A stretch of 64,000 nucleotides of DNA from an archaeon (GTDB lineage: Archaea; Iainarchaeota; Iainarchaeia; Iainarchaeales; 1-14-0-10-31-34). How positions within the stretch are numbered: position 1 is the stretch's first letter; each line of letters opens with the position of its first letter. The position numbers and the translations under genes are program-made. The notes under the pieces are model-generated. The model was not told where the DNA came from. It did not search any database and worked only from the letters and a program-made list of their open reading frames with translations. This document shows positions 9,873-56,227 of this stretch, one piece after another. The stretch is taken from contig JAJRVL010000004.1 of the NCBI GenBank assembly GCA_024277355.1, forward strand, positions 264,804-328,803. Reading direction: 5' to 3'.

Positions 9873-9926
9873 TAAAACACCCTATTAACTGAGTTTTAAT
9901 TAGTATTTAAATGTTTAGAAAAATAA

Positions 9927-9999
9927 TAGCTCCGAGGAGATTCGAACTCCTGTCAACGGGTTCAAAGCCCGTCATCCTTGGCCACTAGACTACGGAGCT
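9927..9999 (-). tRNA. tRNA-Gln (anticodon UUG)
   Basis: Minus-strand cloverleaf: acceptor AGCTCCG/CGGAGCT, anticodon stem ACGGG/CCCGT with loop CTTTGAA, T-arm AGGAG-TTCGAAT-CTCCT, discriminator A. No encoded CCA. Confidence 0.85.
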
Positions 10000-10019
10000 A
10001 GCAAACCGTAGTCTAAATT

Positions 10020-10060
10020 TTGTTCAACCTTTTTTTAAAAGGTTGCTAGACTACGGAGCT
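10020..10060 (-). promoter_or_regulatory. tRNA-Gln 5' leader/promoter region with hairpin CAACCTTTTAAAAAAAGGTTG (TATA-like A/T box) and a duplicated copy of the tRNA 5' 15 nt
   Basis: Seen directly. AGCTCCGTAGTCTAG (tRNA positions 1-15) recurs about 55 nt upstream on the same strand. An inverted copy of TAGACTACGG lies between the two. Confidence 0.35.
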
Positions 10061-10227
10061 ATTAAATTAATTAATAAAATAAAAATAGTCTTATAAATAA
10101 TTTAATTTCAATAAGTTTAAATTGGTTTACTTAAAGTACTTTTTATTACTGTTTGTGTTTACAGTCCGGCTAAATAAAGTTAATAGCAAGTATGCACTCA
10201 AACAGCAAAATATTTTCAAAAGTTTTT

Positions 10228-10372
10228 AGTAAAGCTTTTTTTGAAAAAGGTTTAGTTTGTGTTTGCAAAGCAAACCGTTTTTGATAAAACTTTTTTCTAA
10301 AAAGTTTGTTTTAATAAAACTTTTTCCAAAAAGGATTATGTTTTTGATAAAACTTTTTTCTAAAAAGTTTTT
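10228..10372. repeat. AT-rich palindromic dispersed repeat (family B) upstream of tRNA-Ile. It contains a 30-nt direct duplication (TTTTTGATAAAACTTTTTTCTAAAAAGTTT, two copies).
   Basis: 10228-10305 is about 85% identical to the reverse complement of 27247-27325. It holds multiple CTTTTT-N-AAAAAG hairpins. Confidence 0.6.
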
Positions 10373-11927: not shown

Positions 11928-13292
11928 TTATACCAGTATTGGCCAGACAAAATAAGCCATTAAAGTCAATAAAATTACTCCAATTAAAGCAATAACTATT
12001 CCAGGTTTAGCCATATCAGAAGTTTTAATGTATCCTGAAGAATAAGCTATAGTGCTTGGAGGCGTTCCAATTGGAACAATAAAATCCAAAGAAACACCAA
12101 TTGCAATAACCATTACCGCAAATTCAACTGGAATTCCCAATCCTTGCGCTAAAGGAATAACTAAAGGAATACTGATAGCTGCTGCAGCAGTATTGCTTGC
12201 AACTAAAGTAAAAATTACAGCAAAAACAATTAAAGCAAACAAAATCAGCAATAAAGCTTGTCCAGACAAAAAAGTAAATAAAATATCAGCAAATAATCCA
12301 TCTAATCCAACAGTCTGAATAGCACTTCCAAGAGTTAATCCTCCTCCAAATAAAATCAAAGAACTCCAAGAAACTTTATTTATATCGTTTGTTTCAAGTA
12401 AACCAAAAGAATACAATAAAATAATTGGAATCATTGCAACAACAGAAGTTGAAATTCCATGAATTTTAGTTGTAAGCCACATTAAAACTGTTACTCCAAA
12501 AATAAACAAAACAAGTTTTTGTTTTTGAGTCAAAGGTTTAAAAGAAAAATCTGATTTAATAAAATGAATTTCAGGAGGAAAAAATTTAGTTAAAACAAAC
12601 CACGCAACAGGAAGCAGTAAAATTACCATCGGCAAAGCATAAAACATCCAGTCAGTAAAACCAAAAGAAAAGCCTGCATCATTTAAATAACTTAAAGCCA
12701 TTGCATTAGGAGGAGAACCAATAACAGTTCCAATTCCTCCAATAGTGGCAGAAAAAGCAATACCTAAAACTAATGCTTTACCAAACTTTGAATCCAAAGG
12801 CTTTAATCCATTTGAATTTAATACAACTAAAGCAATTGGAAGCAAAATAGCAGTTGAAGCAGTGTTTGACATCCAAAAAGAAAAAAAAGCAGTTAAACAC
12901 ATTAAACCAAACAAAAATCGTTTAGGTTTATGTCCAACTTTTTTAATTAAATGAAAAGTAATTAATTTATCTAAACCATGTTTCTGTAAACCTAAAGCTA
13001 AAATAAATCCACCTAATAATAACATTATTACTGGATCAAAAAAAGGCGTAAAAACTGTTTTTGGAGTAAAAACTGTTTTGTCATAAAATCCTCCAACTAC
13101 AATTAACAAAAAAGCTGCAATAAAAGCAGTAATATGCAATGGAACTAATTCAGAAAACCATAAAATCATTGCTAAAAATAAAACAGACAAAACAACTTTT
13201 TGCAATGGTTCAATTTGCAGTGGAGAAAACAAAACTGCAAGAAATGCAATAACTGCAAAAACTGCAATAAAAAACCTTATTTTTTGTTTCAT
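11928..13292 (-). CDS. anion permease of the ArsB/NhaD/SLC13 (DASS) superfamily
   Basis: 454 aa, polytopic. Repeated halves with a GTPPN-like re-entrant motif (IGSPPNAMAL). Confidence 0.7.
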   Translation of the reverse strand: MKQKIRFFIAVFAVIAFLAVLFSPLQIEPLQKVVLSVLFLAMILWFSELVPLHITAFIAAFLLIVVGGFYDKTVFTPKTVFTPFFDPVIMLLLGGFILALGLQKHGLDKLITFHLIKKVGHKPKRFLFGLMCLTAFFSFWMSNTASTAILLPIALVVLNSNGLKPLDSKFGKALVLGIAFSATIGGIGTVIGSPPNAMALSYLNDAGFSFGFTDWMFYALPMVILLLPVAWFVLTKFFPPEIHFIKSDFSFKPLTQKQKLVLFIFGVTVLMWLTTKIHGISTSVVAMIPIILLYSFGLLETNDINKVSWSSLILFGGGLTLGSAIQTVGLDGLFADILFTFLSGQALLLILFALIVFAVIFTLVASNTAAAAISIPLVIPLAQGLGIPVEFAVMVIAIGVSLDFIVPIGTPPSTIAYSSGYIKTSDMAKPGIVIALIGVILLTLMAYFVWPILV

Positions 13293-13348
13293 TTAAATAA
13301 GAACAACAGTATCAAATATAAAAGTTAACATTAAGTAATTAATTTCTC

Positions 13349-17764: not shown

Positions 17765-18325
17765 ATGCGCGGAAGAAATCCAGTCAGAAGAAATCAAGGA
17801 ACACATGCTTCAAAATTTCATGGACAAAAAAAGAAAACACCTTTTTTCAGAAAACTAGTGCAAAAAAAAGTTACAAAAGAAATAATGCAGAAAATTTACG
17901 GAATAGAAGCAAGAGAACAGCATTTAATTGAAAGAAGAGACGAAATACTTCATAAAACAAAAGGAATTCCTGCAATTTCAATTGGAAGATTTAGATTAAC
18001 TCCAAGTGCAAAAAACCCAAGAGAACACCAGCAAATATTATTTGAACTTCAGAATGGAGCAATGCCAAGAAAAATACTTCAGTTTTCTGAAATAAGAGAA
18101 TTAGCAAAAAGAAATCCAGTGCAATTTGGACAATTGTTTGATTTAGTTTACAAATATTTCACTGGAGAAATAACCAAAAAAGAAATAGATTCATTAACTA
18201 AATTTTTAAAGCATGCAATAGAAAAAGGAAAAACTACTGACCAAAAAATGGCAAGAGTAATTCAATTAAAAAAAAGAAGAGAAGAAGAAATAGATTTTAT
18301 CCAGTCTTATCACAAAGCAGCTTAA
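17765..18325 (+). CDS. hypothetical basic protein
   Basis: 186-aa ORF with an Arg/Lys-rich N-terminus. No recognised family. Confidence 0.4.
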   Translation: MRGRNPVRRNQGTHASKFHGQKKKTPFFRKLVQKKVTKEIMQKIYGIEAREQHLIERRDEILHKTKGIPAISIGRFRLTPSAKNPREHQQILFELQNGAMPRKILQFSEIRELAKRNPVQFGQLFDLVYKYFTGEITKKEIDSLTKFLKHAIEKGKTTDQKMARVIQLKKRREEEIDFIQSYHKAA

Positions 18326-19623
18326 GGATAACTTCTATTCAGTGTTCTAGGGAAAGGAATTGTATCTTTAATTGAATCTAATTTGCAAATCCATCTTAAT
18401 AATCTTTCAATACCGATTCCAAAACCTGAATGAGGAACACTTCCATATTTTCTTAAATCCAGATACCATTGATAGTTTTCCAAAGGAATTTTTTCTTTCT
18501 TTAATTTTTTAAGCATGTTTTCATTTATGTCTTCTCTTTGTCCGCCGGTACATAATTCTCCATAACCTTCAGGCCCTATTAAATCAAAACTATAACATTT
18601 TTTTGAGTCAGGCATTTCTTTTGCATAAAAAGCTTTTATTTTTGTAGGATAACCATAAATAAAAAAAGGAATTTTTTCATCCTGAGACAAAATTTTTTCT
18701 TCTTTAATGCTTAAATCAATTCCCCAAGGAATTTTCTTTTTGTATTTTTTTTCAAGTATTTCTAATGCTTCATCATAAGACATTTTTGCAAAAGGAGTTC
18801 TTATTGCCTTTAAGTCAGCTAAATCTCTTCCTAAAACTTTTAATTCTTCAGGGTTTTCTTCAGCTATTTTTTGACAAACAAAAGAAACCATTTTTTCTAT
18901 TTCATGCATTTGGTCATCCATGTTCATCCATGCACATTCTCCTTCTAAATGCCAGTATTCTGTTAAATGCCTTGCAGTTTTTGATTTTTCTGCCCTAAAA
19001 GAAGGAGTTAAACCAAAAACTTTTCCTAAAGCAAAAATCATTACTTCTAAATACATTTGTCCTGATTGAGAAAGATATCTTTCTTTACCAAAATATTTTA
19101 ATGGAAATAAAGTTGTTCCTCCTTCACAGGCATTAGGAGTAATCATTGCGGGACTGCATTCAAAATAATTTTCTTTTTTGTAAAATTCTCTTACAGCATA
19201 CATCAAAGTAGAACGGATTTTCATTATTGCCTGCATTTTACTGCTTCGCATCCATAAATGCCTTACATCCAATAAGAATTCTTCACTTAAATCTTTTTGT
19301 ATTGGAAAATTAATGCTTTCTCCTATTAATTTTAATTCTTCAGCCATTAATTCAAATCCAGAAGGAGCTCTTGAATCTTCCTTTAATTTTCCGGTTAATT
19401 CAACTGAAGCTTCAATGCTTTGTTTGCTTAATTTTTCAAATTCTTTTTTATCAATTTTTTCTGGTTCAATAATGCATTGAATTTCTCCTGTTTCATCTCT
19501 TAATAAAAGAAAAATTTTTTCTTTTAAATCTCTTTTTCTTTTAATCCATCCTCTGACTGAAACAAGTCCTTTTTTTTCAAAAGCTTTTTTTATTGAAATA
19601 AATTCTTTTTCCATTAATATCAC
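18322..19623 (-). CDS. asnS: asparaginyl-tRNA synthetase (class IIb, archaeal/eukaryotic type)
   Basis: N-terminal OB fold. Motif 2 FRAEKSKTARHLTEYWHLEGE, motif 3 GFGIGIERLLRW and the AsnRS-typical C-terminus IPFPRT. Confidence 0.8.
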   Translation of the reverse strand: MILMEKEFISIKKAFEKKGLVSVRGWIKRKRDLKEKIFLLLRDETGEIQCIIEPEKIDKKEFEKLSKQSIEASVELTGKLKEDSRAPSGFELMAEELKLIGESINFPIQKDLSEEFLLDVRHLWMRSSKMQAIMKIRSTLMYAVREFYKKENYFECSPAMITPNACEGGTTLFPLKYFGKERYLSQSGQMYLEVMIFALGKVFGLTPSFRAEKSKTARHLTEYWHLEGECAWMNMDDQMHEIEKMVSFVCQKIAEENPEELKVLGRDLADLKAIRTPFAKMSYDEALEILEKKYKKKIPWGIDLSIKEEKILSQDEKIPFFIYGYPTKIKAFYAKEMPDSKKCYSFDLIGPEGYGELCTGGQREDINENMLKKLKKEKIPLENYQWYLDLRKYGSVPHSGFGIGIERLLRWICKLDSIKDTIPFPRTLNRSYP

Positions 19624-19665
19624 TTCATTAATTTTTGTTAGGTTAAAAATTTAAACTAATTTTAA

Positions 19666-19831
19666 CGCCCTAGAAAGGATTTGAACCTTTGACCTTCCGG
19701 TATCTGCTTTCACATAGGTGGAATAAGGCACGGCATAAAGCCGTGCTAGCGCTACTTTATGTAGCGCACACGCGTCAACCGAGTGAGCGGTTGTTTAACA
19801 GCCGGATGCTCTACCACTAAGCTACCAGAGC
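19666..19831 (-). tRNA. tRNA-Asn (anticodon GUU) with a 94-nt intron (19701..19794) after the anticodon loop
   Basis: Exon 1 is GCTCTGGTAGCTTAGTGGTAGAGCATCCGGCTGTTAA and exon 2 is CCGGAAGGTCAAAGGTTCAAATCCTTTCTAGGGCG. The anticodon stem TCCGG/CCGGA re-forms only after removal of the intervening GC-hairpin-rich segment. Confidence 0.8.
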
Positions 19832-19841
19832 AAAAAAAAAT

Positions 19842-26753: not shown

Positions 26754-27110
26754 ATGGCTCAAATAATAAATTTCTTTATTCATATAATTACATTTCTCTT
26801 TATTTTAATTCCTTTATTTCTCCTGTATAGAATTAAATCCAAAGAATACTCAAAATTAATAGGAATAAAATCAAAAAATAAATTAATTAAATCCCTTAAT
26901 CTTATTGTATTAGGATTTATTCCAATTGCATTAATTCATTTATTTGAAGCACTTTCAGTTTACGGAATTAATATACTTCCTCATGAAACCACTTTGTTTC
27001 ATATGACTGCAGAACACCTTGCATTAATAATTGCATTTATTTCCATCAGCTTTTTTCTGCTTAAATTTGAACAGACTTTAACTGAATTAAAAGATGCTTT
27101 ATGCAAATAA
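26754..27110 (+). CDS. hypothetical membrane protein (3-4 TM)
   Basis: 118-aa hydrophobic ORF. Confidence 0.4.
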   Translation: MAQIINFFIHIITFLFILIPLFLLYRIKSKEYSKLIGIKSKNKLIKSLNLIVLGFIPIALIHLFEALSVYGINILPHETTLFHMTAEHLALIIAFISISFFLLKFEQTLTELKDALCK

Positions 27111-27190
27111 ACTTTTAGAAAAAAAAGCTTTATCAAAACAACTGTTTCGGCAGTTGAGTGCGATGCGCTATCTTTGATAGCGTTGCAATG
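27111..27190. repeat. structured GC-rich element, family A copy 1 (candidate ncRNA or intron-like element)
   Basis: AACTTTTAGAAAAAAAAGCTTTATCAAAACAACTGTTTCGGCAGTTGAGTGCGATGCGCTATCTTTGATAGCGTTGCAATGAAC. Its head is about 90% identical to 49187-49235. It contains the hairpins CAACTG-TTTCGG-CAGTTG and GCGCTATC-TTT-GATAGCG. Confidence 0.6.
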
Positions 27191-27360
27191 AACTTTTCCA
27201 AAAAAAGCTTTACCAAAAACTTAAATTTTCTGTATTCCGTCACACAAACCTTTTTAGAAAAAAGGTTTATCAAAAATTAGTTTGCAAACACAAACTAAAC
27301 CTTTTTGGAAAAAAGCTTTACCAAAAACTTAAATCTTTTGTATTCCGTCACACATAGGGA
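27191..27360. repeat. composite AT-rich repeat: two ~55-nt direct repeats (27193-27247 and 27300-27356) flanking an inverted copy of the family B element seen at 10228-10305
   Basis: The direct repeat is CTTTT(C/T)(C/G)(A/G)AAAAAAGCTTTACCAAAAACTTAAAT(T/C)TT(C/T)TGTATTCCGTCACACA. The centre aligns to the reverse complement of 10228-10305. Confidence 0.6.
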
Positions 27361-27538
27361 AAGCTTTGCATCCCCAAAAAGAACCAAATTTTCCTTTTCT
27401 AATAGTCATTTCAAGTTTACAGTTAGGACACTTTGGAGACTTAACTGAAACTTTTGAATGCCTTGAACAAACAGGAATATCATTTGAATTAAGTTTGGTT
27501 GCAAAAGAACCACATTTAGCACATTTCATAAAAATCAA
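27329..27538 (-). CDS. stand-alone topoisomerase-type C4 zinc-ribbon protein
   Basis: Encodes CAKCGS...CSRH...CPNCKLEMTIRKGKFGSFWGCKAFPMC. This matches the zf-C4_Topoisom pattern CPxCG...R.G..G.F.GCS.YP.C. Confidence 0.6.
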   Translation of the reverse strand: MIFMKCAKCGSFATKLNSNDIPVCSRHSKVSVKSPKCPNCKLEMTIRKGKFGSFWGCKAFPMCDGIQKI

Positions 27539-27638: not shown

Positions 27639-27726
27639 AGCAACTTTTTCAAAAGTTGCATCAAAATGCACGACTTCACTTTTGTTCAGTCCTGCTTTCA
27701 TAAAAAAAATAGTGCAGAAGAACTAA

Positions 27727-29279: not shown

Positions 29280-30074
29280 ATGGATAAAACTAAATTAAAG
29301 CAAAGATTAACTCAAAAAACCAAAGAAAGAGTAGCAGAAGCTTTTACAGGAAAAGATATTCACATAATTAAAGCTGTTTCTTTAATTGATGAATTAGACA
29401 AAATGGTTAATTTAATTTCAGAAAACGCAAGAGAATGGTATTCAACTCATTTTCCTGAATTAAATTCTTTAATTGAAGATAACGAAACTTTTTTAGAATT
29501 AATTAAAATAGGAAACAGAAAAAATTTCACAGAAAAAAAAGTTTTAGAAGTTTATAAAAATACAGATAAAATAAAAAAAATAATTGAAAAATCAAAAGAT
29601 TCAATGGGTTCAATAATAGAAGAAGAAACATTAAATCAAATTAAAGGTTTAGCAGAAAAAGGATTAGCAATAAAAAAAGAAAGAAATGAACTAACAAAAT
29701 TCATTGAAAAAGAAATGAAAATTTTGCTTCCAAACTTCACTGAATTAGCTGAACCATTAATTGGAGCAAGAATGTTAGCTAAAGCAAGTTCAATAAAAAA
29801 ATTAGCTTTAATGCCTTCATCTACAATTCAATTATTAGGTGCAGAAAAAGCTTTATTTAATCATATTAAATCAGGAGCAAAACCACCAAAATATGGATTT
29901 ATTTTCGGGCATCCAATGCTAAAACAAGTTAAAAGAAATTTTCAGGGAAAATTTGCAAGAAGTTTAGCAGGAAAATTAAGTATTGCAGTAAGACAAGATT
30001 ACTTTAAAGGAAAAAAAAACGTAAAAGAACTCAAAATAGATTTAGAAAAAAGAATAAAAGAATTGAATAAATAA
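29280..30074 (+). CDS. Nop5 (Nop56/58-like) box C/D snoRNP protein, short form lacking the N-terminal domain
   Basis: Nop domain: LIGARMLAKASSIKKLALMPSSTIQLLGAEKALF...KPPKYGFIFGHP...GKFARSLAGKLSIAVRQDYF. It lies immediately upstream of fibrillarin, the canonical gene pair. Confidence 0.8.
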   Translation: MDKTKLKQRLTQKTKERVAEAFTGKDIHIIKAVSLIDELDKMVNLISENAREWYSTHFPELNSLIEDNETFLELIKIGNRKNFTEKKVLEVYKNTDKIKKIIEKSKDSMGSIIEEETLNQIKGLAEKGLAIKKERNELTKFIEKEMKILLPNFTELAEPLIGARMLAKASSIKKLALMPSSTIQLLGAEKALFNHIKSGAKPPKYGFIFGHPMLKQVKRNFQGKFARSLAGKLSIAVRQDYFKGKKNVKELKIDLEKRIKELNK

Positions 30075-30173
30075 AAAAAAATAAAACAAGGAAATAAAAT
30101 TAAAAACAAAAAAAGAAAAATAAATAAAATAAAAATGAATTAAAATAAAAAAAATAATTAAAGAGAATTTTTT

Positions 30174-30836
30174 ATGAAATTAAATAAGATTGCAGACGGA
30201 ATTTATTCTGATGGAAGAAAAAATTACACTGAAAACTTAGTTAAAGGAAAAAAAGTTTACGGTGAAAGATTAATTTCATTTAAAGGAAAAGAATTCAGAG
30301 AATGGAATCCTTTCAGATCAAAATTAGGCGCAGGACTAAAAAAAGGAATTTTTCCTCCAATAAAAAACGGTTCAAATATTCTTTATTTAGGTGCAGCAGA
30401 AGGAACAACAATATCCCATTTATCAGATATCATAAAAGAAAACGGTTTAATTATTGGAATTGATGTTAGTGCCAGAGTAATGCATAAATTAGTTGAATTA
30501 AGCGAAGAAAGAAGCAATTTAATTCCTTACTTAGAAGATGCAAATAATACAGAAGAAACAAAAAAAGAATTAAAAGAAATAAAATTTGATTTTTTGTTTC
30601 AGGATGTTTCACAAAAAAACCAGACAGAAATTTTTTTAAATAATGCAAAAACTTTTTTAGAAAAAGGAAAGCCAGCAATAATTTCAATTAAAGCAAGAAG
30701 TATTTCACAAAAAAATTCAAAAAAAATTCTAGAAGAAGAAAAAAGAAAACTAGAAAAAGAATTTATTGTTAAAAAAGCTGTTTTTTTGGAACCATTTCAA
30801 AAAGAACACTTGCTTGTTTACTGTGAAAAAAAATAA
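30174..30836 (+). CDS. flpA: fibrillarin-like rRNA/tRNA 2'-O-methyltransferase
   Basis: Contains RSKLGAG, ILYLGAAEGTTISHLSDII and IGIDVSARVMHKLVEL. 220 aa. Confidence 0.9.
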   Translation: MKLNKIADGIYSDGRKNYTENLVKGKKVYGERLISFKGKEFREWNPFRSKLGAGLKKGIFPPIKNGSNILYLGAAEGTTISHLSDIIKENGLIIGIDVSARVMHKLVELSEERSNLIPYLEDANNTEETKKELKEIKFDFLFQDVSQKNQTEIFLNNAKTFLEKGKPAIISIKARSISQKNSKKILEEEKRKLEKEFIVKKAVFLEPFQKEHLLVYCEKK

Positions 30837-31433: not shown

Positions 31434-32537
31434 TTACCTGTCTCTTTTACCTTTAATAAATTCTTCAACCATTGTCTTGCAGACTGAATCAGAAAACTGA
31501 TGCAAAGGATGCTTCATAAAATAAGAAGAACAAGAAGTTAATTCTCCTCCAATTCCTCTGTCTCTTGCTAATTTTATAGCACGCAAAGCATCAATTGTTA
31601 TTCCTGCTGAATTAGGTGAATCCATTACACTTAATCTCATTTCTAATTCCAAAGGAATATCCCCAAATTTTCTTCCTTCCATTCTAATAAAACAAACTTT
31701 ATTGTCTTTCTGCCATGGAACATAATCACTTGGACCAATATGAATATTATCTGCATCTAATTTCTGAGGCAGTTGAGATTGAACTGATTCAGTCTTGGAA
31801 ATTTTTTTGCTTTTCAGCCTTTTTCTTTCAAGCATATTCAAAAAATCTGTATTTCCTCCAGTGTTTAACTGATAAGTTCTGTCTAATTTTACTCCTCTGT
31901 CAGAAAACAATTTAGTTAAAACTCTATGAGTAATTGTTGCTCCAACCTGACTTTTAATGTCATCTCCAACAATAGGAAGTCCTTTATCTCTAAATTTTTT
32001 TTCCCATTCAGGATTAGAAGCAATAAAAACAGGCATACAATTAACCATTCCTACTCCTGCATCCAAACAAGCCTGAGCATAATATTTTGTTGCTTCTTCA
32101 GAACCAACAGGCATAAAATTAATTAAAACATCAGCTTTAACTTCCTTTAAAACTTTTACAACATCAACTGCATTTTCATCTGAAACAACAAATCTTTTGC
32201 TTTCATCATAATTTTCCATATGCGAAGCAAAACCATCTAATACAGGGCCTTTTTGTACAATCACATTTTGTTCCGGAACATCTTTCTGGAAAACTGTAGT
32301 ACAATTAGGTTTTTCAAAAATTGCCTGACTTAAATCTTTTCCAACTTTTCTTTTATCAATATCAAATGCCGCAACAAACTTAATGTCTTTAATTGAATAA
32401 CCTGCAAACACATTATGCATTAAACCAGGAATTAATTCATCTGAATTCTTAACTGAATTATAATAATAAACTCCCTGAACTAAAGAACTCGCACAGTTCC
32501 CCACTCCTGAAATTGCAACTCTGATTTCTTTTTCCAT
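31434..32537 (-). CDS. myo-inositol-1-phosphate synthase
   Basis: NAD-binding [14 protein letters not shown] and the conserved C-terminal MIPS blocks. 367 aa. Confidence 0.8.
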
Positions 32538-37953: not shown

Positions 37954-38174
37954 GGGCCCATAGTCTAGTGGATAGGACAGCAGCCTCCTAAACTTTTTTC
38001 GCAAAAAAGTTTAATCAAAAAAGCAAACTTTTCTGCGAAAAGTTTGTATACAAAAAATAATTTTGTTGCAACTTTAGGGAGAGGCAGTGCGACTTTACGT
38101 CGCACATTTTGGCAACTTGCCTTTTCTTAAAAGGCAGAAAGCTGCGGACCCGAGTTCGACTCTCGGTGGGCCCG
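37954..38174 (+). tRNA. tRNA-Arg (anticodon CCU) with a ~149-nt intron after the anticodon loop
   Basis: Exon 1 is GGGCCCATAGTCTAGTGGATAGGACAGCAGCCTCCTAA. Exon 2 is (A)GCTGCGGACCCGAGTTCGACTCTCGGTGGGCCCG. The anticodon stem GCAGC/GCTGC re-forms after removal of 37991/2..38139/40. Confidence 0.8.
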
Positions 38175-44613: not shown

Positions 44614-45849
44614 TTATTTGCTGTAATGCCCTTCAACATATTCTTCAATTAACTTAATGAATTCTTCAGTTAATTGTTTTGCGTTTCCTTTTAAAACTTT
44701 AATTTGTTTGCCGTCAGCAAAAACAGGAGCTGCAGGAGTTTCACCTGAACCAGGCAAACTTAAACCAATATTTGCGTTTTTGCTTTCTCCTGGACCATTA
44801 ACAATACAGCCCATTACTGCAACTTCCATTTTTTCTACTCCTTTAACTCCTTTTTTCTTCCATTCAGGAGTTTTTTTCTGTAAAAATTTTTCTACTTGTT
44901 CGGCTATTTCCTGAAATACAGTACTAGTAGTTCTTCCGCATCCAGGACAAGAAGTTATTTCAGGAGTAAAAAACCTTAAACTTAAAGACTGTAAAATTTG
45001 CTTGCAGATTTTTACTTCTTCTGTTCTGCTTGTGCCTGGAGTAGGAGTTAAAGAAGTTCTGATTGTATCTCCGATTCCTTTTTGTAATAAAACACTTAAT
45101 CCGGCAGTTGAATGAATCGCTCCCTTTAATCCTTGTCCTGCTTCAGTTACCCCTAAATGCAATGCATTATCACATCTTTCAGCAAGCAAAGAATAAGCTT
45201 TAATCATATCCTGAACTCTTGAACTTTTAGTTGAAATTACAATTTTTTTATTTTCTAAACCTAATTCAACTGCTTTGTTTTTGCTTTCAATTGCACTTGT
45301 AACTAAAGCATCAATTAAAACATCAGTATTAGCTTTTGAATAATTATTTTTTGCGTTTTCATCCATTAATCTTGCTAAAACATTTTGGTCTAATGAACCC
45401 CAATTAACTCCAATTCTAACTGGTTTATCATTATCAACTGCAACTTTAACCATTGCTTCAAAATTTGAGTCATGGCTTTCTCCAAAACCTACATTGCCTG
45501 GATTAATTCTGTATTTATCTAATGCCTGAGCACAATCAGGAAATTTAGTTAACAATAAATGACCGTTATAATGAAAGTCTCCAATTAAAGGAACTTCATA
45601 ATTTTCATCTAACAATGCTTTTTTAATTAAAGGAACTGCTTTTGCTCCTGCATCATCTTTTACAGTAAACCTGACTAATTCACTTCCTGCATCAGCTAAC
45701 TCTTTTATTTGATTAACAGTAGCTTTAACATCTTCAGTTGGAGTATTAGTCATTGATTGAATTACAACAGGATTATCTCCTCCAATAATTATGTTTCCAA
45801 CTTTAACTGCAATACTTTTTCTTCTCATTAAAAAACTAAATAAGAACAA
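44614..45849 (-). CDS. ispG: 4-hydroxy-3-methylbut-2-enyl diphosphate synthase (IspG/GcpE)
   Basis: 411 aa. TIM-barrel N-terminal domain. C-terminal 4Fe-4S cysteines CPGCGRT and VAVMGCIVNGPGE. Confidence 0.85.
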   Translation of the reverse strand: MFLFSFLMRRKSIAVKVGNIIIGGDNPVVIQSMTNTPTEDVKATVNQIKELADAGSELVRFTVKDDAGAKAVPLIKKALLDENYEVPLIGDFHYNGHLLLTKFPDCAQALDKYRINPGNVGFGESHDSNFEAMVKVAVDNDKPVRIGVNWGSLDQNVLARLMDENAKNNYSKANTDVLIDALVTSAIESKNKAVELGLENKKIVISTKSSRVQDMIKAYSLLAERCDNALHLGVTEAGQGLKGAIHSTAGLSVLLQKGIGDTIRTSLTPTPGTSRTEEVKICKQILQSLSLRFFTPEITSCPGCGRTTSTVFQEIAEQVEKFLQKKTPEWKKKGVKGVEKMEVAVMGCIVNGPGESKNANIGLSLPGSGETPAAPVFADGKQIKVLKGNAKQLTEEFIKLIEEYVEGHYSK

Positions 45850-48962: not shown

Positions 48963-48979
48963 CATTCAAAACAGTTTTT

Positions 48980-49179
48980 GCCCTGGTCGTCTAGTGGTTA
49001 GGATACAGCCCTGTCAATCCACCCTTTCTTTTTAGAAAAAAGAAAGTGTAAGTTGCCTAAAAAAAACTTGTTTGAAATAAAACGGTTTTTTCTTTTTGGA
49101 CAACTTGTACTTTTTCTTTTTTCCAAAAAAGAAAAAGGACAGAAAGGCTGTGACTCGGGTTCAAGTCCCGGCCAGGGCG
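48980..49179 (+). tRNA. tRNA-Asp (anticodon GUC) with a ~128-nt intron (about 49018..49145)
   Basis: Exon 1 is GCCCTGGTCGTCTAGTGGTTAGGATACAGCCCTGTCAA and exon 2 is GGCTGTGACTCGGGTTCAAGTCCCGGCCAGGGCG. The anticodon stem CAGCC/GGCTG re-forms after intron removal. Confidence 0.8.
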
Positions 49180-49186
49180 TAAAACT

Positions 49187-49320
49187 TTTAAAAAAAAGTT
49201 TTATCAAAACAACTGTTTCGGCAGTTGAGTGCGATATGCTATCTTACGATAGCAGTGCTTGGAATTCGCGGTTGCGTCCGCGAGCAACGCGTGCTATCTA
49301 AAGATAGCACTGCAATAAAC
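49187..49320. repeat. structured GC-rich element, family A copy 2, immediately 3' of tRNA-Asp
   Basis: AAACTTTTAAAAAAAAGTTTTATCAAAACAACTGTTTCGGCAGTTGAGTGCGAT is shared with 27111-27165. It is followed by the hairpins GCTATC-TTAC-GATAGC, CGCGGTTGCG..CGCGAGCAACGCG and GTGCTATC-TAAA-GATAGCAC, then TGCAATAAAC (cf. TGCAATGAAC in copy 1). Confidence 0.6.
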
Positions 49321-49424
49321 TCTCACTATTTAGACAAAAAATCACGCCAACAATAAATTAATAAAAAGTTTATATGCGAATATTATGTTCATTCTGATTT
49401 TACAGAATTGACTAAGGGATTAAA

Positions 49425-50666
49425 ATGCAGTTTTTAGATGAATTCAAAAAAGGTTTAATGTGGGGCATGCTTACAAGTGTAGACTTGTTTGAATGTAATC
49501 CAAAAAAAATTCGTTCAAAACAAGACATTAAAGAATATGTTAAACAATTATGCAAAAAAATTGACATGAAAACTTTTGGAGAAACAATTGTAGTAAGATT
49601 TGGTAAAGACAAAAGAGTTCAAGGTTACTCAATGACGCAATTAATTGAAACTTCTTTAATCAGCGGTCATTTTGCTGAAAACACTAATTCAGCTTACTTG
49701 GATATTTTCAGCTGTAAATATTATAATGCAGAAGAAGTAGAAGATTTCTCTAAAAAATTTTTTGAAGCAAAAAAATCAGAGTCAAATATTACTTTCAGAA
49801 AAATGCCTGAAGCAGCAAAAAATAAATTACTTGACATTCCTAATTCAAAAAACTGGTTTTTTGAATCAATTGAATTTAATCAGGGAAGAGCTTTAGCATT
49901 AAAAGCCAAACAATTATATTCAACTCAAAGTTCTTTTCAAAAAATAGAAGTATATAATACTAATTCTTTTGGAAAAATGCTTGTATTAGACGGAGCAATA
50001 CAATTAACTCAAGCAGATGAATTTGCTTATCACGAAATGATAGTGCACCCTGCATTAAATACTCATCCTAAAACAGAAAAAGTTTTAATTATTGGCGGAG
50101 CAGACGGCGGAACAGCAAGAGAAACAGCAAAACACAAAACAATAAAAGAAATTCATTTATGTGATTTAGATAAAAAAGTTGTTTTAACATCAAAAAAATT
50201 CCTGCCTTTTACTGCAGCAGGATTAAAAGATAAAAGATTAAGTGTTTTTCATAAAGATGGATTTAAGTTTTTAAAAGAAAAAGAAAATTATTATGATGTA
50301 ATAATAATTGATTCAACTGATCCAATTGGAGTCGGAAAAATATTATTTAGTTCAAAGTTTTTTAAACTTGTATTTAATTCATTAAAAAAAGACGGAATAA
50401 TGGTTAATCAATTTCAAAGCATGTTTTATGAAAAAAAATTAATTAAAGAAATAACAAAAACAATAAAGAAAATTTTCCCTAAATTCTGGTATTATTATAC
50501 TTTAGTTCCTTCATATCCTTCTGGAACAATAGGTTTTGGTTTTGCAAGCAAAAAACATTCTCCTTTAAATCCAAAAAATAAAAACATTAAGGACTTGAAG
50601 TATTATAATTTAGAAATCCATAAAGCAAGTTTTGTTTTGCCTAAATTTATGGAAAAAATAGTTTAA
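49425..50666 (+). CDS. speE: fusion protein: S-adenosylmethionine decarboxylase proenzyme (SpeH/SpeD-like, pyruvoyl-dependent) fused to spermidine synthase (SpeE)
   Basis: N-terminal ~120 aa has the small AdoMetDC pattern (..LIETSLISGHFAENTNSAYLDIFSCKYY; cf. ESHISIHTWPE...DVFTCG). The C-terminal domain has FQKIEVY, VLDGAIQLTQADEFAYHEM, IIGGADGG and IIIDSTDPIGVG of aminopropyltransferases. Confidence 0.7.
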   Translation: MQFLDEFKKGLMWGMLTSVDLFECNPKKIRSKQDIKEYVKQLCKKIDMKTFGETIVVRFGKDKRVQGYSMTQLIETSLISGHFAENTNSAYLDIFSCKYYNAEEVEDFSKKFFEAKKSESNITFRKMPEAAKNKLLDIPNSKNWFFESIEFNQGRALALKAKQLYSTQSSFQKIEVYNTNSFGKMLVLDGAIQLTQADEFAYHEMIVHPALNTHPKTEKVLIIGGADGGTARETAKHKTIKEIHLCDLDKKVVLTSKKFLPFTAAGLKDKRLSVFHKDGFKFLKEKENYYDVIIIDSTDPIGVGKILFSSKFFKLVFNSLKKDGIMVNQFQSMFYEKKLIKEITKTIKKIFPKFWYYYTLVPSYPSGTIGFGFASKKHSPLNPKNKNIKDLKYYNLEIHKASFVLPKFMEKIV

Positions 50667-55076: not shown

Positions 55077-56138
55077 ATGAAATCTTTAATGGAAGACGTA
55101 TTAAATTCAAATAACCAGACTAAAACTGGATCAAACGAAGAATTTTTAGCTCCAAGAATAATGGTAATTGGAGCAGGCGGAGCAGGATGCAACACTGTAA
55201 ACAGAATTTCAAATATTGGAGCAGCAGGCGCTCAATTAGTTGCAGTTAACACAGACAAACAGCATTTGTCTATAATCAATGATGAATTAACTAAAATTTT
55301 AATTGGAAAAAGTGTAACAAGAGGATTAGGAGCAGGCGGATACCCTGAAATAGGAAGAAAATCTGCTGAAATTTCACGTAAAGCATTAGAAGAAGTTTTA
55401 AGCAATGTAGACATGCTTTTTATTTCTGCTGGAATGGGCGGAGGAACAGGAACAGGTTCAGCACCAGTAATAGCAGAAATAGCAAAACAACAAGGCGCAA
55501 TAGTAATTTCAATTGTAACTTATCCTTTTGCATTAGAAAAAGCCAGACTACTTAAAGCAGAAGACGGATTACAGCAATTAAATGCAGTCAGCGATACTTT
55601 AGTTGTAATTGACAACAACAGATTAGTTGAATTAGTGCCTAATTTACCAATACAAGATGCATTTAAAGTAGCAGACGAAGTAACAGCAAGAACAGTAAGA
55701 GGAATAACAGAAACAATAACCCAACCTTCATTAATTAACTTAGATTTCGCTGACATTAAAAGTGTTATGGGCAATAAAGGATTAAGTGTAATTGCAGTAG
55801 GAGAATCAAAATCAAACAACAAAGTAGAAGAAGTAGTACAAGAAACACTAAAAAATTCTTTATTAGATGTTGATATTTCTGGTGCAACAGGAGCATTAAT
55901 TCATATTACCGGAGGCCCAGAATTAACTTTAGGAGAAGCAAATCAAGTAGGCGAATTACTAACTGAAAGAATTGACCCTAAAGCAACAGTCATCTGGGGT
56001 TCAAGAGTTGACCCAACATTTGAAAACAAAATAGAAGTAATCTCAATTTTTACAGGGTTATCAGAAAAAGAAGTTAAAGGAATGAAAATTCAAAACCAAA
56101 AAAAAGACAAACAAGGATTAAATTTAGGTTTTATATAA
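55077..56138 (+). CDS. ftsZ: cell division GTPase FtsZ
   Basis: IGAGGAGCN, the tubulin signature [21 protein letters not shown], and the T7 loop. Confidence 0.9.
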
Positions 56139-56227
56139 AACAAACTTTTTCGGAAAAAGTTTAATAAAAACAATCTTCTAAAAAAAAAGGTTGAATAAAA
56201 ACTTTTATCAGCTTTTTCCAAAAAGTT

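Follow-up and report, generated by a model that had tools for sequence, protein, structure and literature searches.

Are tRNA genes that are interrupted by well over a hundred nucleotides of palindromic sequence functional, and where does such sequence come from? The question is raised by a 64,000-nt window of the archaeal contig JAJRVL010000004.1 (assembly GCA_024277355.1, positions 264,804 to 328,803 of the forward strand; G+C content 27.8%), in which an initial annotation had proposed that genes for tRNA-Arg and tRNA-Asp are split at the canonical position 37/38 by exceptionally long introns filled with repeats. Our analysis makes it probable (roughly 80%) that the genes are genuine and functional and belong to a Diapherotrites/Iainarchaeum-like DPANN archaeon, each of them carrying an unusually long, protein-spliced bulge-helix-bulge (BHB) intron at 37/38. 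Support for this reading comes from the exon assignment, the conservation of the intron site, the co-variation of the exons, the complementarity in the central helix of the splicing motif and the mosaic sharing of modules.

Neither gene was reported by ARAGORN run on the window in its default mode or by Rfam at the gathering threshold on the whole window. In intron mode, ARAGORN found tRNA-Arg(CCT) at 37954-38174, where GGGCCCATAGTCTAGTGGATAGGACAGCAGCCTCCTA, 149 nt and AGCTGCGGACCCGAGTTCGACTCTCGGTGGGCCCG follow one another in order, and placed a second gene at 48979-49180, which it labelled Ser(AGA) with a 128-nt intron at 34/35. We rejected the Ser(AGA) label because the gene has the short variable arm of class I, the Rfam tRNA model (used with an E-value threshold on the Arg, Asp and 27-kb regions) puts a 130-nt insertion after CUGUC (40 bits, E 4.9e-7), the exons spliced at 37/38 form a 72-nt tRNA-Asp(GTC), and the orthologue at L002 is called Asp (loci of relatives are labelled L001 to L022). 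The second gene is thus tRNA-Asp(GTC), at 48980-49179. A third long-intron gene in the window, absent from the initial annotation, specifies tRNA-Asn(GTT). The three genes are laid out as follows.

37954-37990, plus strand: 5′ exon of tRNA-Arg(CCT), positions 1-37 (ARAGORN intron mode; the spliced product is a 72-nt tRNA-Arg(CCT))
37991-38139, plus strand: tRNA-Arg intron of 149 nt at 37/38 (ARAGORN and orthologue comparison; fold z = -5.3)
38140-38174, plus strand: 3′ exon of tRNA-Arg(CCT), positions 38-73 (pairs 27:43 and 6:66 co-vary with the 5′ exon)
48980-49016, plus strand: 5′ exon of tRNA-Asp(GTC) (40 bits with the Rfam tRNA model; splicing yields Asp(GTC))
49017-49144, plus strand: tRNA-Asp intron of 128 nt at 37/38 (a long imperfect palindrome)
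49145-49179, plus strand: 3′ exon of tRNA-Asp(GTC) (Rfam tRNA model and in-silico splicing)
19666-19831, minus strand: tRNA-Asn(GTT) with a 94-nt intron, 19702-19795, at 37/38 (Rfam, 53.7 bits; ARAGORN, which sets the limits at 19665-19832)

In-silico splicing at 37/38 turned each of the three genes into a normal 72-nt tRNA according to ARAGORN, and removal of the intron restored a canonical cloverleaf with an intact 7-nt anticodon loop. For both of the splits that had been proposed, the exons and the 37/38 site are upheld. The limits first given for the Asp intron, 49018-49145, are as valid as 49017-49144, because an A flanks both Asp junctions. The claim of unusual length also holds, as archaeal tRNA introns were found in a 2014 review to range from 11 to 129 nt, with medians of 12 to 25 nt (PMC4090602). 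The mis-call of a long-intron tRNA-Asp(GTC) as Ser(AGA) with an intron at 34/35 recurred at L018 (6950-7223), and a systematic error of this kind could mislead automated annotation. The tRNA-Asn(GTT) gene lies 42 nt upstream of the asparaginyl-tRNA synthetase gene (18322-19623).

The comparison with relatives that the initial annotation called for was made through NMD3, one of the archaeal proteins encoded in the window along with Hef, an aCPSF1-like nuclease, an STT3-like protein, Nop5 and fibrillarin. The closest relatives by NMD3 (60-72% identical) are labelled Candidatus Diapherotrites or Micrarchaeota. Gene order around NMD3, which we used to reach the tRNA-Arg orthologues, is kept, and each close relative has an intron-bearing tRNA-Arg(CCT) at the matching place. 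The exact 31-mer of the Arg 5′ exon had no match in the genome contig collection; a degenerate tRNA-Arg pattern recovered five loci in genome contigs and five in the metagenome collection. All 10 distinct tRNA-Arg(CCT) orthologues carry an intron at 37/38, of 77, 80, 84, 96, 115, 136, 146, 149, 168 or 185 nt. The tRNA-Asp(GTC) introns measure 115 nt at L002, 128 nt in the window and 200 nt at L018. Among six tRNA-Arg exon variants, 100% of the cloverleaf cells are paired, pair 6:66 being CG, UG or UA and pair 27:43 being GC, AU or UA. The changes on the two sides of the intron are compensatory, and the two exons therefore evolve as one functional tRNA. This stem co-variation across the intron argues for one split gene and not two separate fragments, the outcome that the initial annotation had named as fatal to its proposal.

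A more distant DPANN relative, L006 (NMD3 40% identical), has a tRNA-Arg(CCT) gene at 13210-13331 on the minus strand with two introns, of 32 nt at 29/30 and of 14 nt at 37/38. This two-intron structure is a manual parse, ARAGORN giving Ala(GGC) with a single intron. The long intron looks like an expansion of a short ancestral one, because the intron of L006 at 37/38 is only 14 nt long.

A tRNA-Asn orthologue was sought via the asparaginyl-tRNA synthetase gene; the one locus examined (L022) has a different gene order and no tRNA. At L019, L020 and L021, where spermidine-synthase neighbours were inspected, there was no tRNA-Asp nearby. The first 9,700 nt of L019 (1-9700; a contig shared with L003), upstream of the spermidine-synthase gene, consist of about 10 kb of small open reading frames (ORFs) with almost no Pfam matches. 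This site is occupied by a glutaredoxin gene and tRNA-Asp in other genomes, and the L019 segment may represent an element that integrated at the tRNA-Asp locus or close by.

In a canonical BHB motif at 37/38, the intron bases n-5 to n-2 must pair with positions 32-35. The hBHBh′ motif consists of two 3-nt bulges with a 4-bp helix between them and of flanking helices. Among 15 introns compared, the central helix has 4/4 pairs in six (window Asp, window Asn, L002 Asp, L012 Arg, L014 Arg and the 14-nt intron of L006, with 3-nt bulges), 3/4 in seven and 2/4 in two (L002 Arg and L005 Arg). The C32:G(n-2) pair is present in 15/15, and the 3′ bulge is 3 nt long throughout. The central helix of the window Asp intron, CUGU:ACAG, is perfect and both its bulges have 3 nt; that of the window Asn intron, CUGU:GCAG, is perfect as well. 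In the window Arg intron, GCAG at n-5 to n-2 pairs with positions 32-35 at 3/4, with a C-C mismatch, and only 5% of the 4-mers of that intron match as well. When each intron served as its own control in this manner, usually 1-7% of its 4-mers equalled the central-helix pairing, and up to 29% did so in the weakest cases. More variation is seen in the second outer helix. The ends of the L005 intron can be read as pairing over 11 bp. In many others a stable local hairpin begins 1-7 nt past the 5′ splice site and another stops just before the central helix. The splicing motif of tRNA-Arg is thus a relaxed form; relaxed motifs have been tied to broad-specificity endonucleases, DPANN lineages included (PMC5829648).

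We then turn to what fills the introns. All the palindromes that had been named in the Arg intron were found, TAAACTTTTTTcgcAAAAAAGTTTA at 37989-38013, CAAACTTTTctgcgAAAAGTTTG at 38024-38046 and GTGCGACtttacGTCGCAC at 38087-38105. They belong to the following features, all on the plus strand.

37989-38023, plus strand: conserved 5′ module, consisting of the hairpin TAAACTTTTTT-cgc-AAAAAAGTTTA and the tail ATCAAAAAAG (orthologue identity)
38024-38046, plus strand: second AT-rich hairpin module, CAAACTTTT-ctgcg-AAAAGTTTG (common to the L007 and L014 introns)
38087-38105, plus strand: GC-rich hairpin GTGCGAC-tttac-GTCGCAC (sequence reading; present in the minimum free energy fold)
38118-38139, plus strand: 3′ hairpin TGCCTTTT-ctt-AAAAGGCA (overlaps GCAG at n-5 to n-2 and then the AA of the 3′ bulge)

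The hairpin of the 5′ module takes in the exon bases U36 and A37. The window Asp intron forms an imperfect palindrome of about 115 nt, in which the hairpin modules that had been described were located at 49021-49049 and 49106-49141. The window Asn intron contains GC-rich hairpins, and the L002 Asp intron is made up of three modules in tandem and shows about 80% identity to the intergenic arrays of the window. The pattern CTTTTTN{0,6}AAAAAG occurs 13 times in the window (3.4 expected), a count reached in none of 100 shuffles. Folded alone, the introns give z = -5.3 for Arg and -4.2 and -4.3 for the other two. They are mosaics of AT-rich hairpin modules, GC hairpins and the palindromic element of about 115 nt.

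One module is oriented, an AT-rich hairpin being followed by an asymmetric tail (consensus AAACTTTTT-NNN-AAAAAAGYTTTAWCAAAAA), and it opens the Arg intron. This opening is 97-100% identical over 32-33 nt in 7/10 orthologues, and the remainder of the intron is unalignable. The unpaired tail, TAATCAAAAAA, is as conserved as the hairpin. The other three orthologues, L002, L004 and L005, have no TTTAAT tail.

The same pieces recur in the introns of other tRNAs and outside introns, so that colonisation by a repeat family, one of the two origins suggested in the initial annotation, is well supported. In alignments scored against dinucleotide-preserving shuffles, the L007 Arg intron matched the window Asp intron over 52 nt at about 90% (z = 10.9) and the L012 Arg intron matched it over about 130 nt (z = 8.2). 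The window Asp intron is also homologous to the L018 Asp intron. Over its first 24 nt the window Asn intron aligns with the opening of the L005 Arg intron (z = 9.8), and a 21-nt GC hairpin is identical in the window Asn intron and an intergenic spacer of L001. The aligned stretches (52-133 nt) include the non-repetitive GGACAACTTGTAC, GTAAGTTGCC and GAAATAAAAC. Intergenic copies lie at L007 15842-15913 (of the window-Asp-intron type), at L001 17892-17912 and in the window at 10277-10372 and 56128-56202. The oriented module occurs 11 times in the window (1.3 expected) and never inside ORFs; its copies lie in the introns and in four clusters.

10222-10371, minus strand: tandem array of four modules in the spacer between tRNA-Gln and tRNA-Ile (80% identical over 81 nt to the L002 tRNA-Asp intron)
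27109-27330, plus strand: four-module array whose start coincides with the stop codon of the small ORF 26754-27110
49180-49208, plus strand: module directly past the 3′ end of tRNA-Asp (oriented-module scan)
56141-56227, no strand assigned: pair of modules in the spacer of convergent genes (81% identity with the L002 tRNA-Asp intron over 75 nt)

We also counted hairpins centred on T4/A4 (at least 4 T, a loop of 1-5 nt, at least 4 A, with arms of at least 8 nt). The relatives had 18 in 1.4 kb of tRNA introns versus 10 in about 34 kb of intergenic DNA. Their tRNA introns are thus the main habitat of these hairpins, and in the genome of the window the family has also spread to spacers, mostly adjoining tRNA genes. 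It is also conceivable, if unlikely, that a hairpin repeat family resides chiefly in the tRNA introns of this clade and spreads from there into intergenic DNA. The outer stem bases of the modules vary between copies and yet stay complementary; a hairpin, rather than one fixed protein-binding sequence, is therefore favoured as the conserved feature.

Several further observations concern the surroundings of the modules. In several genes modules adjoin the sites at which the tRNA is processed, be it the 5′ end, the 3′ end or a splice site. At tRNA-Ile and tRNA-Thr, 1-2 nt separate the end of a module (10343-10371 and 27640-27659) from the mature 5′ terminus, with TTTTGAT(A/G) at about -30. The first 15 nt of tRNA-Gln (9926-10000, minus strand), AGCTCCGTAGTCTAG, are repeated 56 nt upstream (10018-10059). 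Between the two AGCTCCGTAGTCTAG copies lie a hairpin module and an inverted copy, TAGACTACGG, an arrangement that could be the trace of an insertion or rearrangement at the 5′ end of the tRNA. Direct repeats of about 55 nt at 27190-27245 and 27298-27355 each contain a module and then CTTAAATYTTYTGTATTCCGTCACACA, and the second runs into the 3′ end of a small ORF on the minus strand (27329-27538). Just past tRNA-Asp, a GC-rich structured element (49205-49330; fold z = -5.0) has a shorter paralogue at 27137-27192, 91% identical over 46 nt; both have a module in front and end in GATAGCRCTGCAATRAAC. A similar hairpin followed by CTGCAATAA comes after tRNA-Arg at L002 (11594-11624) and L005. The two elements matched no Rfam family, and the 49205-49330 type may be an undescribed small RNA or 3′-end element.

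How would a gene of this kind be expressed and have acquired its intron? The pre-tRNA would fold into the cloverleaf, and the 3′ bases of the intron (n-5 to n-2) would pair with anticodon-loop positions 32-35 to make the central helix. This would leave each splice site within a short bulge or a junction, and 1-7 nt past the 5′ site a stable local hairpin would begin. We infer that both sites would be cut by the splicing endonuclease and the exons joined by RtcB, the intron probably being freed as a structured circle. Because the endonuclease reads only the junction motif, the interior would be free to grow, and an ancestral short intron, like that of 14 nt in the distant relative, may have been enlarged to 77-200 nt in the clade. 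The added material would be AT-rich hairpin modules, GC hairpins and the palindromic element of about 115 nt, pieces of which, we infer, move or recombine among the introns of different tRNAs and intergenic spacers.

Several points weigh against long BHB introns enlarged in this manner. The tRNA-Arg motif is no textbook BHB: in 8/10 orthologues one or two of the central-helix pairs are mismatched, and past the 5′ bulge a local hairpin often takes the place of a pairing of the intron ends. When 40 ORFs of the window were scanned against Pfam and NCBIfam (36 of the 41 with 200 amino acids or more, and four shorter ones adjoining tRNA genes), no splicing endonuclease (EndA), RtcB ligase or transposase came up; RtcB and archease are encoded in the relative L021. 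Beyond the lack of a transposase among the scanned proteins, no terminal duplications or other mark of mobility were seen, no systematic search for target duplications having been made. Finally, passive accretion of repeats does not explain why the opening 33 nt of the Arg intron, unpaired tail included, are nearly identical in 7/10 orthologues.

That conserved opening suggests another possibility, namely that the 5′ module of the Arg intron is an internal promoter starting a separate transcript, made of the rest of the intron and the 3′ exon, which would anneal to the 5′ half and be ligated to it at the BHB in a partly split-gene-like arrangement. The right half of the module (AAAAAAG and TTTAATCA) fits a promoter-like motif of this genome, AAA[GC][CGT]TTTA, whose frequency is raised 5.7-fold in intergenic DNA and which is often found 9-76 nt upstream of a start codon, as a core promoter made of a B recognition element (BRE) and a TATA box would. 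The conservation of module and exons, with the sequence downstream free to vary, is also a promoter-like pattern. In addition, modules usually come after the end of a co-oriented gene, and one stands in front of each of the two structured RNA-like elements at 27137 and 49205. However, three of the ten orthologues lack the TTTAAT tail, and read-through is the simplest expectation, the two halves being adjacent and co-oriented in every genome; the halves of a split gene lie at separate loci, have their own promoters and are joined in trans. Separate transcription forced by T-run terminators was dropped as an explanation: coding sense strands show no avoidance of T6 runs (111 counted vs 86 expected), so T-runs past the 5′ exon are unlikely to stop transcription. 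We regard an internal promoter of this sort as quite unlikely. The idea that the conserved 33-nt module of the tRNA-Arg(CCU) intron is an active BRE/TATA promoter, which would make this gene a living intermediate between intron-containing and split tRNA genes, strikes us as unlikely too, if a little less so.

The introns might instead be kept for a functional small RNA that they encode, the other origin suggested in the initial annotation, be it a box C/D guide as in the archaeal tRNA-Trp intron or a stable circular regulatory RNA. Their strong structure (z -4.2 to -5.3), the conserved first 33 nt of the Arg intron and the presence of Nop5 and fibrillarin genes in the window (29280-30836) would suit such a role. 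Against it, no Rfam family was found apart from chance microRNA-like hairpins (Arg intron searched up to E = 10, Asp intron up to E = 1), and no snoRNA family came near threshold. The Rfam searches of the whole window and of the 27-kb region likewise gave nothing but tRNA and chance hairpin hits of the microRNA type. RUGAUGA and CUGA boxes are absent from the three window introns, as read from their sequence, and L002 offers only a 6/7 C-like match and no D box. Nor are the intron interiors conserved, those of orthologues being unalignable and 77-185 nt in total intron length. The suggestion was thus not borne out, and a retained small RNA is very unlikely.

Another possibility is that the shared modules are unrelated by descent or mobility, AT-rich hairpins having recurred through slippage and composition bias as a low-complexity coincidence. 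A G+C content of 27.8%, the ease with which T-run/A-run palindromes (most of the modules) are made and the many weak matches of 10-14 nt across the window speak for it. Alignments of 52-133 nt at z = 8-11 that run through non-repetitive stretches, an oriented tail motif at 11 copies against 1.3 expected with all copies outside ORFs, and the identical 21-nt GC hairpin in the window Asn intron and the L001 spacer make coincidence highly improbable.

It is hardly credible that the exon assignment is wrong or the genes dead, whether as pseudogenes, unrelated tRNA fragments or hosts of a self-splicing group I intron: default ARAGORN and Rfam at its gathering threshold did pass over the Arg and Asp genes, and the ARAGORN isotype for Asp was wrong, but splicing gives perfect 72-nt cloverleaves, changes on one side of the intron are compensated on the other, the genes are kept in the same neighbourhood in every relative examined, and the standard code has no Asp acceptor other than tRNA-Asp(GUC). 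The catalytic core of group I introns is P3-P9, and the smallest known to us are about 200 nt long; a group I intron is excluded by the 77-nt orthologues and the lack of a shared core, and no group I or II intron model of Rfam matched (Arg up to E = 10, Asp up to E = 1).

Protein-spliced BHB introns of unusual length thus remain the preferred reading, and several known systems help to place them. Canonical archaeal BHB introns of pre-tRNAs at 37/38 were reportedly described by Marck and Grosjean in 2003 and are reviewed in PMC4090602. The introns examined here resemble canonical ones in their 37/38 site, their normal cloverleaf exons and, perfect in Asp and Asn, the pairing of the intron 3′ end with positions 32-35 and the 3-nt bulges. 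They differ in their length of 77-200 nt, in the repeated hairpin modules inside, and in the relaxed tRNA-Arg motif with its central-helix mismatches and a local hairpin in place of the outer helix.

In Thermoproteales, near-alike introns occur in different isoacceptors according to the papers that cite the original work (Fujishima et al. 2010, cited in PMC4090602 and PMC8450103); because closely similar introns sit in different isoacceptors, intron sequence is taken to move between tRNA genes. Here too, highly similar intron sequence is found in tRNAs of different identity. Unlike in Thermoproteales, it comes as segments and not as whole introns, all sites are canonical, intergenic copies exist too, and the host belongs to DPANN and not to Crenarchaeota.

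The tRNA-Trp intron of Haloferax is about 105 nt long. The box C/D-bearing archaeal tRNA-Trp intron, with a median of 65 nt (PMC4090602), is likewise long, structured, placed at 37/38 and conserved in position across its clade, whereas the introns described here have no C/D boxes and no conserved interior and belong to Arg, Asp and Asn, not Trp. The split tRNA genes of Nanoarchaeum equitans, also of DPANN, share the division at the anticodon loop, flanking complementary sequences that could form the splicing motif and a promoter-like element ahead of the 3′ half; in contrast, the halves here are adjacent and co-oriented at one locus.

The modules themselves are like repetitive extragenic palindromic (REP) sequences, bacterial interspersed mosaic elements (BIME) and prokaryotic MITEs (miniature inverted-repeat transposable elements) in being multi-copy, short, imperfect palindromes with a conserved asymmetric flank, found only in non-coding DNA, in tandem mosaic arrays and often just past gene ends (PMC2817692, PMC10969869). 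They are unlike those in being archaeal, AT-rich and heavily concentrated in tRNA introns, and in having no associated transposase or target duplication identified. Long repeat-built introns of Diapherotrites or Micrarchaeota are the subject of no report that we found in the searchable literature, which is incomplete, and we claim no priority.

Other features of these genomes were noted in passing. Inteins (Intein_splicing and LAGLIDADG matches) are present in the inositol-1-phosphate synthase of relatives and in RtcB of L021 (loci L001 15357-17867, L002 12537-14912, L004 13706-16054, L007 13333-15843 and L021 5328-8282), and the enlarged GARS genes of L002 and L004 show faint LAGLIDADG matches. 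The inositol-1-phosphate synthase of the window (31434-32537) has no intein. IspG/GcpE, of the bacterial-type methylerythritol phosphate (MEP) isoprenoid pathway (window 44614-45849, minus strand), and a fused S-adenosylmethionine decarboxylase/spermidine synthase (window 49425-50666) are both conserved across the clade.

The class of mechanism, protein-spliced BHB introns at 37/38, is well known. What is different here is the clade-wide length of up to 200 nt, the modular repeats common to intergenic DNA and across isoacceptors, the relaxed tRNA-Arg junction and the highly conserved promoter-like opening module. Default finders miss the genes, the only tRNA-Asp among them, so that essential tRNAs would falsely seem to be lacking from genomes of this DPANN clade. 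Incomplete tRNA sets were noted for DPANN in a 2018 study, in which undetected disrupted genes were suspected (PMC5829648). At one orthologous site the intron measures 14 nt in a distant relative and 77-200 nt in this clade, which offers a clean natural experiment on the growth of protein-spliced introns, and the length series suggests that the endonuclease tolerates large structured insertions together with a relaxed junction motif. A palindromic family concentrated in tRNA introns and common to different tRNAs carries the idea of intron-sequence transposition from Thermoproteales to DPANN, and it makes the origin of split tRNA genes, and their relation to intron-containing ones, more testable.

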